Part shown: one piece after another, positions 115 to 26,862 of the stretch
How positions within the stretch are numbered: the first letter of the stretch is position 1
How the letters are laid out: each line of letters opens with the position of its first letter
NCBI GenBank assembly: GCA_002753335.1
Contig: PEAD01000027.1
Location: forward strand, 1 to 39,945
DNA: 39,945 nucleotides
DNA from: Nitrospirae bacterium MYbin3
GTDB lineage: Bacteria > Nitrospirota > Thermodesulfovibrionia > Thermodesulfovibrionales > Dissulfurispiraceae
Reading direction: 5' to 3'
Made by a program: the position numbers and the translations under genes
Notes under the pieces: model-generated
Seen by the model: only the letters and a program-made list of their open reading frames with translations
What the model was told of the DNA's origin: nothing
The model's database searches: none

Positions 115-705
115 ATGAAAAAACTTGTACTGTTTGCCTTATTGCTTTTTGTTTTTGCGCTTCCTTCGCTCGGCCTCGCTTCAACATGGCAGATAGATGG
201 GGACCACTCGACAGTAGGGTTTTCTGTAAAACATATGATGATTACAAATGTTAAAGGTGTGTTCGAACGCTTTTCTGGCAAGATTGTGATAGATGAAACT
301 AATATCGCCAAATCAAGCGTCAAGGCGGTGATAGAAACAGGCTCTATAAACACGCGCATTCAAAAAAGGGATGATCATCTGAGGAGCTCAGATTTTCTTG
401 ATACTGCGGTGTTTCCAACCATGACTTTTGTATCGAAAAAAATAACGGCGTCAGGAAAAGAGCGCCTGAAAATTACGGGAGACCTTACACTTCACGGCAT
501 AACCCGCGAAGTTGTCCTTGATGTCGAAAACCTTACCGAACCTGTCAAAGACCCGTGGGGCAAAATTCGGCGCGGAGCTTCGGCCACTACAAAAATCAAC
601 AGACGCGACTATGGCCTGACATGGAACAAGGCGATAGAAACAGGCGGGGTCTTGGTGGGCGATGAGGTTGCTATAACTATAGAAATCGAAATGATAAAGG
701 AGTAG
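115..705 (+). CDS. yceI: YceI family periplasmic polyisoprenoid-binding protein
   Basis: Signal peptide, WQIDGDHSTVGFSVKH, RDDHLRSSDFLD, GDLTLHGITREV, DPWG motifs; AGGAG RBS upstream. Confidence 0.92.
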   Translation: MKKLVLFALLLFVFALPSLGLASTWQIDGDHSTVGFSVKHMMITNVKGVFERFSGKIVIDETNIAKSSVKAVIETGSINTRIQKRDDHLRSSDFLDTAVFPTMTFVSKKITASGKERLKITGDLTLHGITREVVLDVENLTEPVKDPWGKIRRGASATTKINRRDYGLTWNKAIETGGVLVGDEVAITIEIEMIKE

Positions 706-806: not shown

Positions 807-1634
807 TTAGCGGCTGAGGGTTTCCCCTACAGCAAGACTTTTCATCTCGGTCTTAAGGCCAAGCGCTTTAATCTCTTTTTCAAGTGCAGCAGCTGTGCCT
901 GTGAGTGCAGGGAAAGTGCCATAATGCATAGGCACTACTACTTGAGGGTTTACAAGCTGCACCGCTTTTGCTGCGAGTTTAGGCCCCATAGTGAACTTGT
1001 CACCAATGCATGCGAGCATTACATCAATTTTGCCCGAACTATTTATCAAGGCCATATCACCAAAAACGTCTGTGTCACCGGTGTGGTATATAGTAGGCCC
1101 GTTCTTAACATAAATTACAAATCCGCCCGGATTGCCTCCGTAAGCGTTCAGGTTCGGCAGTTTGCTGTCTGTAGCGCCTTCAAGGGCAGAGCTGTGAACA
1201 GCAGAAACAAATAGAATTCGTACTTCTCCGTTCAGAAGCGATATCTGGCCGCCAAAGTTCCCCATATTTTCTTTAGGATAATATTTTTCGGGCAGGCCGC
1301 CGAACTGAACCATTGCCCGGCCGAGGTCTGCCGTAGCCACAATCGTCGCACCTGTCTTTTTTGCGATCTCTACAGTGTTGCCCACATGGTCGCCATGGCC
1401 ATGCGTAAGCAATATGAGATCGACCTTGTCGAGCGCAGCAAGCTGCTCTTTGCCTTTAGGATTTGCTGGGTTTGTTATCCAAGGATCGATGAGAAGAACC
1501 TTCCCCGAGCCGGTCGTGACTTTAAATGTGGAATGGCCTAACCATGTAATTCCTGTTTTGTCAGCGGCACAGACTGCTGTGGCATAGACCAACAAGCAGA
1601 ATAAGACCAAACTTAAAAATAATTTGCGTGACAT
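807..1634 (-). CDS. Metallo-beta-lactamase-fold metal-dependent hydrolase (UPF0173-like) with signal peptide
   Basis: ITWLGHS, IDPW, THGHGDH, YHTGDT, PMHYGTFP motifs; hydrophobic N-terminus; GGAGG RBS. Confidence 0.88.
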   Translation of the reverse strand: MSRKLFLSLVLFCLLVYATAVCAADKTGITWLGHSTFKVTTGSGKVLLIDPWITNPANPKGKEQLAALDKVDLILLTHGHGDHVGNTVEIAKKTGATIVATADLGRAMVQFGGLPEKYYPKENMGNFGGQISLLNGEVRILFVSAVHSSALEGATDSKLPNLNAYGGNPGGFVIYVKNGPTIYHTGDTDVFGDMALINSSGKIDVMLACIGDKFTMGPKLAAKAVQLVNPQVVVPMHYGTFPALTGTAAALEKEIKALGLKTEMKSLAVGETLSR

Positions 1635-1758
1635 TGTCCCCTCCGGAATAAGTTTTTAGAAGCTGCCTTAATTTTGCAACTGTTTTAAGTTAAGAATCAA
1701 GACAGTAAAGCAAACTATTTTGGTTAAAGTATTGCAGAACTGTATTTCTAAAATTTTG

Positions 1759-1767
1759 TGCTATAAT
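1759..1767 (+). promoter_or_regulatory. Extended -10 promoter element for the rhodanese gene
   Basis: TG-C-TATAAT about 60 nt upstream of ATG 1829. Confidence 0.5.
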
Positions 1768-1828
1768 TGACATATAAATTATAATTTTAGCTAGGTGTGG
1801 TCTAGAAATAAAAAACAGGAGGAAAAAA

Positions 1829-3184
1829 ATGACAAAAAACATCTTTTTTAAAAAGGCGTTTGCGGTTGCAGCCGTAACACTGTATTGCAGTGGCGGGTTG
1901 TTCGCAGCCGAGAAGCCGCAGATTCTTAAACCCTGTACGCAGTGTCATCAGGCAGAAGCAAACAAGCTTAGGGGCACAGTAGGCAGCGTGTCCGGCAAGG
2001 CAGAAACTATTCAGGTTGAGACGGGCGCAACATGGATAGTAAAGTTTGATGAAAAAACAAAAATCAACAATTGGCAGCAACCTGTAAACAAGATACCAAA
2101 AGAAAAAGAAATCGCGGTTGTTTTTGCTGAGAAAGAGGGCAAATTATATGCTGAATCAATAACTGTAAAGCCGCCGGCAAAGGTAAGAGATGAACAGCTG
2201 ATTAAAGCGGAAGCGCTTTCAAAACTTATTGCGCTCGGAGCTGACAAGGGGAACTATATCATTATAGATTCAAGGCCTGCGCCGCGTTTTGGTGAAGCGC
2301 ATATTCCGGGAGCTATAAACATCTACGATGCTGATTTTGACAAAAATATAGAAAAGCTCCCTAAAGAAAAAGATAAAATCTTAGTTTTTTATTGTGCAGG
2401 CCCCACCTGAAGGCTGAGCCCATCCTCTGCCAGTAAGGCGGAGAAACTTGGATACAAAAACGTAAAAGTGTTTATTGATGGGCTGCCGGCATGGAAAAAG
2501 GCGGGCAGTCTTATTGCATCTACCGGTGCGAATCTCAAAGGCGTGATAGACAAGGATATACCGCATGTGCTGATAGATGTAAGACCGGCGGATTATGCAA
2601 AAAAAGAACATATAAAAGGCGCAGTCAACATACCGCTTAAAGAGCTTGCAGGAATGAAGCCTAAATTCCCGGAAAACAAAAAAGCCCCGATTGTTATTTA
2701 CTGTGCTTCCCAGCAGGCTATGGAAGAGGCGTTTAAAGCTGTCAGGGGATGGGGTTATGTAAATGCGTCATACCTTGCCGGAGGAATGGAGGGGTGGAAG
2801 AAAGCGGGCAACCCGGTAGAAAATGACAAGCTAAAAACAGAAATAGTATATGTGCCTAAACCAAGACCGGGCGAGATTATGCCCGAAGAGTTTAAAACAA
2901 TTGCGGCGTCAACTCCATCCGGCAAGTTCATTCTTGATGTGCGCGATGCTGATGAAGCTGCGGAAGGCATGATTAAAGGCGCGAAGAATATTCCAACTCA
3001 GGATGTTGGCGATAGAATTGCCGAGATACCGAAAGACAAAGAGATTATTATCCATTGTTCGACAGGAGCGAGAGCAGAGATAGCCTACAACACGCTTAAA
3101 GAAAAAGGGTTCAAAGCGCGTTTCTTAAATGCAACTGTGAAGATAGCCAAAGATGGAAAGCTTGAAATAACCAAAGAAGATTAG
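1829..3184 (+). CDS. Exported c-type heme / triple-rhodanese selenoprotein (451 aa; UGA at 2408-2410 read as Sec)
   Basis: ORFs 1829-2410 and 2468-3184 share a frame; read-through gives FYCAGPT-U-RLSPSSASKAEKLGYKNVKVF, completing a rhodanese domain. CTQCH heme motif, signal peptide, SECIS-like hairpin, selC in window. Confidence 0.88.
2411..2443 (+). promoter_or_regulatory. Putative bacterial SECIS element
   Basis: Stem CTCTGCC (2425-2431) / GGCGGAG (2437-2443), loop AGTAA beginning 21 nt after the UGA, G in second loop position. Confidence 0.72.
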
Positions 3185-3189
3185 TTTTT

Positions 3190-3225
3190 ACAGAAGCGCC
3201 TGAGGTTTGCCTCAGGCGCTTCTGT
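3190..3225 (+). terminator. Strong hairpin after the rhodanese gene, likely terminator
   Basis: Perfect 16-bp inverted repeat ACAGAAGCGCCTGAGG-TTTG-CCTCAGGCGCTTCTGT; weak U tract. Confidence 0.65.
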
Positions 3226-13638: not shown

Positions 13639-14433
13639 ATGAACCAGATAGAGCTTTATAAAAACCTGCCGAAAAAAAACTGCGGCAAATGCAAACAGAA
13701 AACCTGCATGCCGTTTGCGCTTGCGGTGATAAAAGGCGATGCTGAACTTTCGGAATGCCAGCTTTTGGAGCCGGCCGAAGCAGAACGGCTCAAAGCGATG
13801 ATAACCGTGACCGACTGGCGCGAAGGGTTGATATTGAAGCTCAGAGATGAAATTAAGAAGATAGATTTAGGCTCGATTGCTGAGCTTCTTGGCGGACAGA
13901 TGCAGAACGGAAGTCTTGTTGTAAACTGCATGGGCAGACCGTTTACGGTATCAGCGGACGGCGATGTAACTACACATGGACACATTACGCCGTGGGTAAA
14001 AATTCTGCTGCTTCACTACATAAGAAATTCCTTCAACAACTCCATCGCAATAAAAGGCATGCCGAAACAGACGGATGAAAAATGGGTATCTTATGCCGAA
14101 CTTAAAAATGGCATGGTCAAAGCCGCATCATTTGAGCGCGAAGGCGAAGAACCCCTAAAAGAAATGCTTGACCAGAACCTGACAGCGGTCGAAACTATTC
14201 TTAAAAGATTAGGGGCCGTAACAAAAGAGGGCTTTTCAACTCCTTGCGCATGGGCGCTTCACCTGCTTCCCAAAGTTCCTGTTCTTATACTCTATTGGCC
14301 CGAAGAAAGCGAGTTTCCATCAAAGGTCAAGGTTCTATTTAATACTTATGCCGATAAATATCTTGATGTGGAAGCGATTGTGTTTTTGATTGAAGGGCTT
14401 GTAAAGAATATCGAGGCGATGAGCAGGCGCTAA
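13639..14433 (+). CDS. Fe-S cluster domain plus DUF3786 protein
   Basis: LPKKNCGKCKQKTCMPFA...C Fe-S motif; LPKVPVLILYW...EFPS...YLDVE. Confidence 0.82.
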   Translation: MNQIELYKNLPKKNCGKCKQKTCMPFALAVIKGDAELSECQLLEPAEAERLKAMITVTDWREGLILKLRDEIKKIDLGSIAELLGGQMQNGSLVVNCMGRPFTVSADGDVTTHGHITPWVKILLLHYIRNSFNNSIAIKGMPKQTDEKWVSYAELKNGMVKAASFEREGEEPLKEMLDQNLTAVETILKRLGAVTKEGFSTPCAWALHLLPKVPVLILYWPEESEFPSKVKVLFNTYADKYLDVEAIVFLIEGLVKNIEAMSRR

Positions 14434-14792
14434 ATCTGACTTAGCAGCGTCAGAACAACAGCCATCAGCAAAAGACCGAAAAATACAATCGATGCTTTTC
14501 GCCTTCCATTTGCTCCCTTGTCAATATAAGGTATTGCAAGCAGTAAAAATGCGAATACAGCAGGAACAATTACTGCTCCCACAAAAATAGCATTGCCCGG
14601 GAAGTAGCGTATAAGCTGATATATCCAGAGAAAATACCATTCAGGCAAGGGCTGAAAAGATTTTGTGAAATCTATCTGCCTGCCGACCGGAGGCGGACAA
14701 GTAAGCGCAATGACCAATAACAGCTCAAATGCGATCAGCACGACAAATATTATTTCAGACAAGTAGTCGGGATAAAACTTTTTTTCTTTCAC
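14430..14792 (-). CDS. Cytochrome b C-terminal subunit (subunit IV / PetD-like)
   Basis: KFYPDY, PEWYFLW, PYID; three TM helices. Confidence 0.85.
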   Translation of the reverse strand: MKEKKFYPDYLSEIIFVVLIAFELLLVIALTCPPPVGRQIDFTKSFQPLPEWYFLWIYQLIRYFPGNAIFVGAVIVPAVFAFLLLAIPYIDKGANGRRKASIVFFGLLLMAVVLTLLSQI

Positions 14793-15436
14793 AGATTTTT
14801 TGCAATCCCCCGTCTTTTTACCATGTGAAAGTGGCCCCAGAGCAACAGCGAAATAAACACCGGCATATAAATCACATGTATGCTGTAAAATCTGATCAGC
14901 GTAGAGCCCCCAACATCAGCGCCTCCACGCAGTAAGTTTTTAATATGTCCTCCGAAAAACGGCAGGGTGCCCAGCATCGAGGTTCCGACTTCGGTGGCCC
15001 AATACGCCTTCTGGTCCCACGGCAAAAGATAACCGGTAAATCCTGAACCAAGTGCAAATATAAGGCCGACCACACCCGCCATCCAGTTAAGCTCTCTCGG
15101 CGGTCTGTATGCCTTGGAAACAAAAACTCTAACAGTATGCAGCAGTATAAAAACTATAAATAAAGTGGCGGACCATTTGTGCAGCCCGCGTATAAGCCAA
15201 CCGAAACTAATCTCTTCGGTGATCATCAAAATGCTTTTATATGCCTCTTTTTCGGAAGGCACGTAATAAAGCGTCAAAAGCATTCCGCTGAATCCGAGCA
15301 GCAAAAAATAAACAAAAGCGATGCCCCCAAAACAGTACGAATAGCCGATATTATCCGGCACAGGCCTCTTCATGAAGTTTTTATGCGGTGCCTTTATGCC
15401 GAACTTCCTGTCCAGCCAATCAAATATTTTTCTCAT
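14789..15436 (-). CDS. Cytochrome b6-like N-terminal subunit (PetB/QcrB-like)
   Basis: YCFGG, YYVPS, GWLIRGLHKW, LH, GYLLPWDQKAYWA, RFYSIH, HF heme ligands. Confidence 0.92.
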   Translation of the reverse strand: MRKIFDWLDRKFGIKAPHKNFMKRPVPDNIGYSYCFGGIAFVYFLLLGFSGMLLTLYYVPSEKEAYKSILMITEEISFGWLIRGLHKWSATLFIVFILLHTVRVFVSKAYRPPRELNWMAGVVGLIFALGSGFTGYLLPWDQKAYWATEVGTSMLGTLPFFGGHIKNLLRGGADVGGSTLIRFYSIHVIYMPVFISLLLWGHFHMVKRRGIAKNL

Positions 15437-15879
15437 CAGATCTTCATGCCTATATAAACTTTTCCGTCCTTTATTTCTAAAGGCAGCCTTGCAAGAGGCG
15501 CCGGTGGTGGTCCGGCCGTTACATTTCCGTCAATGCCGTATCTGCCGCCGTGGCAGGGACAGATAAATTCTTTTTTATTGTGATCCCAGTTAATAAAGCA
15601 GCCGAGGTGTGTGCAGACAGAAGAAAATGCTGTCAGCTCTTTATCAGAGGCCGAAATGTAAACTCTGCTTCCCATCGTGCGGTCTTCCCCGTTGTATTCA
15701 AAATCTACTTTGCGCACGCCTTTACGAGGAAGACTGTCTTCATCCATAAGATAGAAATAGCGGATATTTTGGGTGCGTTCCCTTGACGGAAAAATATAAA
15801 ATACAACCGAACAAACAGCGGCAAAAAGCCCTGCGAAGAAAAGCTTTACAAAACTAACCAGAAAGTTTCTTCGGTCCAT
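15436..15879 (-). CDS. Rieske 2Fe-2S subunit with Tat signal
   Basis: MDRRNFL, CTHLGC, CPCHG, GPPPAPL. Confidence 0.93.
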   Translation of the reverse strand: MDRRNFLVSFVKLFFAGLFAAVCSVVFYIFPSRERTQNIRYFYLMDEDSLPRKGVRKVDFEYNGEDRTMGSRVYISASDKELTAFSSVCTHLGCFINWDHNKKEFICPCHGGRYGIDGNVTAGPPPAPLARLPLEIKDGKVYIGMKI

Positions 15880-26764: not shown

Positions 26765-26862
26765 TGGCGGGAGCGTATGGGAATCGAACCCATCCTGCCG
26801 GTTTGTGGCCGGCAACACCGGATTTGAAGTCCGGGAGGGACACCAGAACCCTATGCGCTCCC
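26765..26862 (-). tRNA. selC: tRNA-Sec (anticodon UCA)
   Basis: 98 nt: CCGGA-CTTCAAA-TCCGG anticodon arm, long variable arm TTGCCGG/CCGGCAG, ATGGG-TTCGATT-CCCAT T arm, 8-nt acceptor strands, GCCA end. Confidence 0.95.

Follow-up and report, generated by a model that had tools for sequence, protein, structure and literature searches.

We analysed a stretch of 39,945 nt of Nitrospirae bacterium MYbin3 (contig PEAD01000027.1 of assembly GCA_002753335.1, positions 1 to 39,945; hereafter the window) and, in it, the gene at positions 1829 to 3184 of the forward strand, which is interrupted by an in-frame TGA at codon 194. On the basis of sequence comparison, we considered this gene to encode a real, widespread and systematically mis-annotated selenoprotein, that is, a rhodanese with a selenocysteine (Sec) at the position of the TGA and with an undescribed head domain, which has a haem motif and the oligonucleotide/oligosaccharide-binding (OB) fold. 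The decoding of UGA194 as Sec is near certain, because the comparison of the codon over homologous loci, a hairpin typical of the TGA forms and the presence in the genome of tRNA-Sec, selA, selB and selD all point to it. As for the function, the model to which we committed ourselves, with a probability of about 0.5, is that of an exported sulfane-sulfur transferase whose Cys189/Sec194 pair would be reduced or oxidised through haem.

Gene structure and reading frame

The original prediction claimed that two open reading frames (ORFs), 1829-2410 (193 amino acids, aa) and 2468-3184 (238 aa, with a GTG start), are one frame broken only by the TGA at 2408-2410, and the frame analysis confirmed it. 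The read-through product has 451 residues (...KILVFYCAGPT-U-RLSPSSASKAEKLGYKNVKVF...; for the residues after U194, ...VFYCAGPT-U-RLSPSSASKAEKLGY...), and it continues the rhodanese fold, as claimed, with the TGA inside the first of three PF00581 stretches and, precisely, in its active-site loop. The second ORF was also correctly described as lacking an evident ribosome-binding site: an AGGAGG precedes the ATG at 1829, and inspection of the sequence upstream of the GTG at 2468 found no AGGAGG-like motif. We also scanned the window for frames that read through a TGA with 70 codons or more on either side of it, and of the seven frames obtained only the one at 2408-2410 corresponds to a real gene. 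The parts of the gene, all on the forward strand, are the following.

1817 to 1822, forward strand: Shine-Dalgarno-like AGGAGG, followed 6 nt later by the ATG at 1829 (read from the sequence).
1829 to 3184, forward strand: one gene of 451 codons and a TAG stop, in which a single in-frame TGA is taken as Sec; the frame is kept across the TGA in 64 distinct loci.
1829 to 1909, forward strand: residues 1-27 (KK, then a hydrophobic core and ..LFAA|E), predicted by inspection to be a signal peptide of the Sec type.
1934 to 1948, forward strand: CTQCH, predicted covalent haem c attachment site (residues 36-40; C36, C39, H40).
1949 to 2182, forward strand: small OB-fold beta-barrel domain, residues ~41-118, predicted from the AlphaFold2 (AF2) model, Foldseek and VIA-align.
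2195 to 2518, forward strand: rhodanese domain 1 with the C189-x4-U194 loop (best PF00581 stretch, residues 138-225).
2393 to 2395, forward strand: codon of Cys189, the first residue of the C-x4-U pair.
2408 to 2410, forward strand: UGA predicted as Sec194, from the comparison of TGA and Cys codons over homologous loci.
2425 to 2443, forward strand: predicted bacterial selenocysteine insertion sequence (SECIS) hairpin, with a 7-bp stem of the CCUCUGC/GCGGAGG type and a 5-nt loop AGUAA, 14 nt past the UGA (fold and comparison).
2534 to 2833, forward strand: rhodanese domain 2 (PF00581), probably catalytically inactive, the loop residue being mostly Asp in homologues.
2873 to 3136, forward strand: rhodanese domain 3 (PF00581), canonical loop H-C410-S-T-G-A-R415, with the Cys410 codon at 3056-3058.

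Comparison of codon 194 and selenocysteine machinery

We ran a six-frame search on 41 genomes, represented by the genome of the window and 40 relatives, and considered as a match any hit with E <= 1e-20. By this threshold 26 of the 41 genomes matched, and among the 32 matches listed 25 contained one TGA, one contained two, one contained a TAA and five contained none. In the 20 loci fetched from these genomes, the window's own included, codon 194 was TGA in 19 cases and TGC in one. A second set was obtained by scanning one genome per species, which confirmed 524 loci; 79 were retained and, apart from seven, could be parsed, codon 194 of the 72 parsed loci being TGA in 48 cases, TGC in 23 and TGT in one. 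The two sets had three sequences in common and, once merged, consisted of 89 distinct loci, 64 with TGA and 25 with TGC or TGT. The alignment of U194 with either Cys or a conserved TGA, which had been put forward as a check of the Sec reading, is therefore what the loci display.

In the protein database, position 194 of 108 full-length homologues was occupied by Cys in 104 cases, by Ser in three and by Gly in one, considering that Sec forms cannot occur there as full-length entries. All counts over 109 proteins given below include the window protein with its U194 written as C (hence Cys at 194 in 105/109).

The presence of selA, selB and selD in the genome had been indicated as a further check, and all three genes were found above their cut-offs (617.5, 368.8 and 361 bits, respectively). 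The tRNA-Sec claimed within the window was found by ARAGORN and Rfam alike:

26765 to 26862, reverse strand: tRNA-Sec, anticodon UCA (ARAGORN; Rfam RF01852, 71.3 bits versus a gathering score of 47).

We also observed that selD (G000:C46:39158-40081, locus L010) itself holds one in-frame TGA, so that SelD is probably a selenoprotein.

SECIS hairpin

A SECIS-like hairpin had been reported after the UGA, and we recovered it with a stem 14 nt downstream, a pairing specific to the TGA forms and a conserved G in the loop; in bacterial SECIS elements the stem stands shortly downstream of the UGA. The hairpin at 2425-2443 was present in both the minimum free energy fold and the centroid fold. In 49 TGA-bearing sequences its register was paired in 87.2% of cells, versus 33-50% with slid partners, and four of the seven stem pairs showed changes on both sides. 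The same register in 24 Cys-codon homologues was paired in 53.6%, no better than with a slide of -1 (56.0%); precisely, the central G-C pair 22-32 was formed in 49/49 TGA forms versus 3/24 Cys forms. The G of the apical loop (alignment column 26) was at least 90% conserved.

Three points on the hairpin tell against decoding as Sec. The 71-nt stretch folds no better than its shuffles (z -0.89), hence the hairpin is not significant from the single sequence and its significance comes from the comparison between TGA and Cys forms. The covariation is modest, since the stem is at the same time coding sequence for a conserved peptide, S-S-A-x-K-A-E. Finally, one Cys form, at locus L020, retains the downstream hairpin. 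This locus (G006:C48; codon L020:2269-2271, reverse strand) is the sole TGC form among the close relatives of the window and, with hairpin and TGC together, looks like a recent Sec-to-Cys replacement.

Rhodanese domains and the Cys/Sec pair

The protein matched PF00581 in three stretches (E 1.8e-52, 176.4 bits versus a Pfam cut-off of 22.2), and its full AF2 model was confident, with a predicted local distance difference test (pLDDT) value of 90.1 and a predicted template modelling (TM) score of 0.79, residues 1-27 having a pLDDT < 50. The multidomain rhodanese 1yt8, a thiosulfate sulfurtransferase of P. aeruginosa, was the best match both by fold (E 1.6e-15) and by sequence (E 2.8e-30). The two proteins share tandem rhodanese domains, some of them inactive, but 1yt8 has neither the CXXCH/OB head nor Sec, and the global TM score is only 0.2, the arrangement being different or not comparable.

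In domain 1, C189 was conserved in 107/109 proteins and S197, of the motif U194-R-L-S197, in 104/109; in domain 3, C410 was conserved in 107/109 and R415 in 102/109. In the loop of domain 2, the corresponding position was Asp in 83/109 and Cys in only 7/109, among which is C292 of the window protein (CASQQA). Three rhodanese loops had been proposed: the three PF00581 domains and the Cys of domains 1 and 3 stand, but the Cys of domain 2 is not conserved, and this domain, though a rhodanese, is probably inactive.

A TGA also falls in frame within the loop of two other rhodaneses of this genome, both of them small, exported and made of one domain, one of the C-x4-U type (IYCRGYGUGLT; G000:C57, L123:1393-1782, forward strand) and one of the U-x4-C type (FYUNGIKCWRS; G000:C50, L124 ~1351-1860, forward strand). 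A U-x4-U rhodanese, TsoB, has been reported as a fusion with a DsbD-like electron importer (PMC13188914). Thus either residue of the pair can be Sec, which is what one would expect of a dichalcogenide couple, and the occurrence of Sec at one or both positions, together with the electron-supplying fusions, would suit such a couple in a redox-active role more than a protein that only carries persulfide.

Head domain and haem motif

The head had been described as a small beta-rich linker. This did not hold: modelled alone with AF2, residues 28-122 gave a confident OB-fold barrel (pLDDT 94.9), a prediction with which Foldseek and VIA-align agreed. Its CXXCH was invariant in 109/109 full-length proteins, and either CXXCH or CX4CH was present in all the 68 locus translations with an open frame. 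The spacing is altered at loci L015, L024, L037 and L060, in which C-x4-CH (CSLPGCH, CGLAGCH) replaces CXXCH and the ...CH end is kept.

From the CXXCH motif alone, we considered the predicted binding of haem to be likely. The genome has four matches above cut-off to the cytochrome c assembly family PF01578 and also encodes other c-type cytochromes. The claim that the protein is a monohaem cytochrome c thus stood only in part: the motif is invariant, but the fold is OB, no cytochrome family matched and no conserved His or Met was found in the head for the distal side. The conserved candidates for a sixth ligand are K57 and K114 (the latter invariant, 56/56) in the head and, in the rhodanese domains, C189, U/C194, M381 and H409.

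Proposed function

In the model that we preferred, the protein would act in the periplasm as an exported haem protein, as suggested by its sequence features. Domain 3, with its C-x4-R loop, would take sulfane sulfur from polysulfide or thiosulfate and hold it as a Cys410 persulfide; the C189/U194 pair of domain 1 would attack this persulfide, releasing sulfide and forming a selenenylsulfide; and the single haem would re-reduce the pair, one electron at a time. The partners of the haem could be periplasmic cytochromes or a quinol-linked complex or, alternatively, a respiratory enzyme of the Psr/Phs or MccSep type, while domain 2 would be a structural, inactive rhodanese. The whole scheme could be reversible and, in the oxidative direction, the C189/U194 pair would build sulfane sulfur from sulfide. 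The precedent for this mechanism is MccSep, which reportedly reduces polysulfide by means of a Sec and of a Cys that ligates haem (PMC13510729).

As regards genomic context, the one sign of the proposed sulfane-sulfur role is an operon found at the Burkholderiales Cys forms, and not beside the window gene. Precisely, in 14 of the 24 loci with a Cys form (12 of the 14 being complete and two cut by the contig end), all of Burkholderiales type, the gene directly follows, on the same strand, an operon for a PhsA-like molybdopterin oxidoreductase, an NrfC/PsrB-like iron-sulfur (FeS) protein and an NrfD/PsrC-like membrane protein. The PhsA-like gene scored 515.5 bits versus the PhsA cut-off of 694, which makes it related to PhsA and not an equivalog. 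One Desulfuromonadales locus has a PhsA-like gene just downstream. We also noticed, in Burkholderiales-type loci among L062-L109 (e.g. L092:805-1845, reverse strand), a protein of ~340 aa with a rhodanese domain, distantly related to the query and divergent from the PhsA-like operon, which ends with the Cys-form gene.

Several results weigh against this model. No gene neighbour is conserved across the family; a PhsA-like gene was near only one of the 48 TGA-form loci, at a distance of 5.8 kb, and there is none beside the window gene. Co-occurrence with MccSep in the 40 relatives, which are related and non-independent genomes, was weak (both in 19, the rhodanese family only in six, MccSep only in eight, neither in seven). 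No cytochrome family of Pfam matched the protein, and in NCBIfam the only hit was Cyt554, with an E of 0.098. In residues 28-122 of the 109 homologues there is no conserved His or Met that could serve as the sixth ligand. Lastly, four relatives of 372-373 aa lack the CXXCH/OB domain and keep C-x4-C, hence the couple does not strictly depend on a fused haem.

The same genome encodes a stand-alone five-CXXCH cytochrome of the MccSep/ExtKL family with one in-frame TGA (HRIPDGUPSPN), which scored 538 bits versus a cut-off of 250:

G000:C11:71223-72422 (L112:1441-2724), reverse strand: MccSep/ExtKL homologue, identified by profile match and TGA.

No rhodanese gene was found within 1.5 kb of it. We considered MccSep as an obligate partner of the window protein and rejected it, given the weak co-occurrence and the distance of any rhodanese from the MccSep gene of this genome. 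Genome G006, to which locus L020 belongs, has no MccSep match.

Alternative explanations

The alternative to which we gave most weight, as a possibility well short of even odds, is that of a real selenoprotein that only carries sulfur, as Sud and SbdP do. In this case sulfur would be held on Cys410 and Cys189/Sec194 and passed to a separate reductase, either of the Psr/Phs type or MccSep, and the haem would serve only for docking, sensing or stability. The position of the Cys forms at the close of the PhsA-like/FeS/NrfD operon in 14/24 loci is where a carrier of substrate would be expected, there is a resemblance between domain 3 and Sud (1qxn), the haem-less relatives keep C-x4-C, and ExtH and the periplasmic rhodaneses of sulfur respirers are described as carriers. 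However, the invariance of CXXCH (109/109) suggests that the cofactor is required; the paralogues, with Sec at one or the other position of the pair, and TsoB, with its DsbD fusion, speak for redox cycling more than for carriage alone; and the best PhsA score in the genome of the window (124.7 bits versus 694) is below the cut-off.

A more specific form of haem coupling, which we regard as rather unlikely, would have the c-haem on the OB head, where His and Met are lacking as a sixth ligand, ligated by, or stacked on, the Cys189/Sec194 loop, giving a haem-coupled selenenylsulfide/perselenide centre. If this were true, the protein would be analogous to MccSep, TsdA or SoxAX but with a single haem, and its family would represent a new and very widespread class of periplasmic polysulfide/thiosulfate oxidoreductases, present in sulfate reducers, in sulfur disproportionators and, as Cys forms, in sulfur-oxidising Burkholderiales.

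It is unlikely that the CXXCH and the CusF-like OB domain are a metal site or a redox dithiol that relays electrons to C-x4-U with no haem involved. Such a role would agree with the best structural matches of the head, which Foldseek found in two metallochaperones of the periplasm, CusF and SilF (E 2e-4 to 2e-2, 13-15% identity; best CusF 3e6z, E 2e-4), with the lack of a cytochrome family match and of a conserved distal ligand, and with the thiol-disulfide (DsbD-like) nature of the TsoB partner. However, the His right after the second Cys is invariant, and the ...CH end is kept through the CX2CH/CX4CH variation; a ...CH end with varied spacing is the pattern of c-haem sites and is unexpected for a CXXC dithiol. 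Furthermore, at such identities the CusF match is at fold level only, as are the matches of VIA-align, which returned generic OB folds (Z up to 7.6), and the metal ligands of CusF itself are presumably not at the position of CXXCH. The protein is also probably exported, in a host with cytochrome c maturation genes.

Still less probable is a role of the protein in the handling of selenium instead of sulfur, by periplasmic reduction of selenite or selenotrisulfide or by delivery of perselenide. Titles cited in PMC5877670 indicate that rhodaneses can carry selenium, and the Geobacter ext cluster, with its rhodanese ExtH, has been linked to selenite reduction. Against these points, the Cys forms stand in PhsA-like operons (thiosulfate/polysulfide type), the family is spread over sulfur-cycling lineages and nothing selenium-specific is encoded near the window gene.

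Finally, the gene could end at the TGA, or be a pseudogene or carry an error of sequencing at this codon, leaving two proteins or none. This agrees with the treatment of TGA by gene callers, with the halves stored in the database and with the non-significant single-sequence fold of the hairpin, but is hardly credible: 64 distinct loci from several phyla have TGA at this codon, the others having Cys, and it lies within the rhodanese active-site loop; moreover, the second ORF has no ribosome-binding site, the hairpin is specific to the TGA forms and the Sec machinery of the genome is complete.

Comparison with known proteins

The statement that Sec-containing rhodanese families exist proved right, as five forms are catalogued in the literature (PMC13188914; PMC9312934). 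Form 1 is listed there with PF00581, the motif UxxS and the protein WP_010941598.1, and is attributed to Zhang & Gladyshev 2005 (PMC13188914). It has in common with the window protein the rhodanese domain, a single Sec and the motif, which is U-R-L-S in our case; the table of the catalogue gives no architecture, and the comparison is by motif only. The motif is not specific to an architecture, the small single-domain C-x4-U rhodanese of the same genome having U-G-L-T. TGA-form homologues of the window gene are found in Geobacteraceae (L093 and L108, from Geobacter and Geomonas metagenome-assembled genomes, MAGs), the family of Geobacter sulfurreducens, the presumable source of WP_010941598.1. 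The window family may be the catalogued form 1.

TsoB (NF045694, UxxxxU) is similar for the x4 dichalcogenide loop in a rhodanese and for the presence of an electron-supplying module, and it matched domain 1 with an E of 6.3e-21. However, the window protein scored 74.1 bits versus a cut-off of 805 and so falls outside this family; in TsoB there are two Sec and the membrane module is of the DsbD type, whereas the window protein has a Cys and a Sec and the CXXCH/OB head. The model NF041203 (rhodanese_LYCAU (seleno)protein) was also not reached, with 95.3 bits versus 115, and no curated model of NCBIfam reached its cut-off.

Sud of Wolinella succinogenes (PDB 1qxn), which we take to be a single-domain Cys protein with neither haem motif nor Sec, is an exported rhodanese serving a Psr-type molybdoenzyme, and domain 3 of the window protein matched it with an E of 1e-5. 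The Cys forms of the window family resemble it also in ending a PhsA-like operon, while the window gene has no Psr/Phs neighbour.

MccSep, or ExtKL (GSU2937-2936), is described as a five-haem selenoprotein polysulfide reductase with a haem-ligating Cys and a Sec (PMC13510729). It shares with what is predicted for the window protein the periplasmic location, haem c with a catalytic Sec and a Cys, polysulfide and the same phyla; it differs in having an unrelated fold, five haems and the Sec in a cytochrome and not in a rhodanese loop, and no sequence similarity to the window protein was seen.

The architecture had been called uncharacterised. This holds for the fusion, in that no description of a CXXCH- or cytochrome-rhodanese fusion with Sec was found in the literature covered, the scope of which left out Zhang & Gladyshev 2005, Haft & Tolstoy 2025 and the supplements, and in that the available parts of the papers on ExtH and on the periplasmic rhodaneses of Desulfobulbales make no mention of it; it does not hold for the class of Sec-rhodaneses, which is not new. 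The protein unites three features that usually occur apart: a motif for haem, a rhodanese loop with a Cys/Sec pair, and a rhodanese of the canonical, persulfide-forming kind. Being small and soluble, it makes testable the question raised with the recent work on MccSep, and the natural Cys variants can serve as controls.

Family spread and annotation

Among 7995 candidates scored, 1927 proteins were found at E <= 0.001. The family ranges over Nitrospirota, Thermodesulfobacteriota and Pseudomonadota. Longer fusions were represented by only two proteins (791-2255 aa) at E <= 1e-40, with rhodanese domains only, a weak type of evidence.

We built a quick maximum-likelihood tree, rooted at midpoint, with 68 of the 72 parsed proteins; the other four were dropped, as CXXCH was not found in their open upstream frame. 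All the 23 Cys forms (20 from Pseudomonadota and three from Geobacteraceae/Desulfuromonadales) fell in one part of the tree, and Sec forms were on every deep branch. The Sec/Cys label needs as few as one change, versus 19 in shuffles, although the branch required for exactly one change has a support of only 23. Sec thus looks old in the family and Cys derived, the direction being not proven.

A second paralogue, 34-43% identical and mostly with one TGA, was observed in the genome of L070 (a Nitrospiraceae MAG) and in G001, G009, G014, G017 and G021. At L070 the two homologues adjoin, and one match of G017 has a TAA instead of the TGA.

The claim that annotation pipelines split the gene was borne out: when a Sec form from Geobacter was searched with its C-terminal half, 118 of the best 120 database matches started 2-53 residues past the Sec. 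Such half entries include those of the isolates Citrifermentans bremense and Geomonas oryzisoli, and five 256-aa clusters of the database begin directly after the TGA. Because Sec forms are stored almost only as halves, surveys of rhodaneses, cytochromes or selenoproteins in sulfur-cycling anaerobes miss or miscount the family.

Neighbouring genes and other features of the window

The gene stands alone between a divergent exported hydrolase of the metallo-beta-lactamase (MBL) fold and a stretch with SIS, RuvC and RibBA genes. A promoter scan found no promoter-like site upstream of 1829, and a likely terminator follows the stop codon; it is unlisted in the consensus terminator scan, its T-run being weak.

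3192 to 3223, forward strand: perfect 14-bp inverted repeat with a 4-nt loop, 8 nt past the stop, likely a transcription terminator (read from the sequence).
807 to 1634, reverse strand: exported MBL-fold hydrolase, divergent from the selenoprotein gene.
115 to 705, forward strand: YceI-like protein, beyond the MBL-fold hydrolase.

We considered these neighbours (MBL-fold hydrolase, YceI, SIS protein, RuvC and RibBA) as a clue to function and discarded them, none being obviously related. At locus L034 an ORF of 275 aa occupies the position of the MBL hydrolase, and the pairing with the latter is not conserved across the family. At locus L024 (genome G033), an ORF of ~484 aa for a multihaem cytochrome with many CXXCH motifs lies directly upstream of the orthologue (forward strand, frame 0), an arrangement not seen in the other loci.

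Elsewhere in the window, positions 14433-15879 of the reverse strand encode a Rieske protein, a cytochrome b (215 aa) and a separate ORF similar to the cytochrome b C-terminal part or subunit IV (120 aa), that is, the operon of a b6f-like split bc complex.

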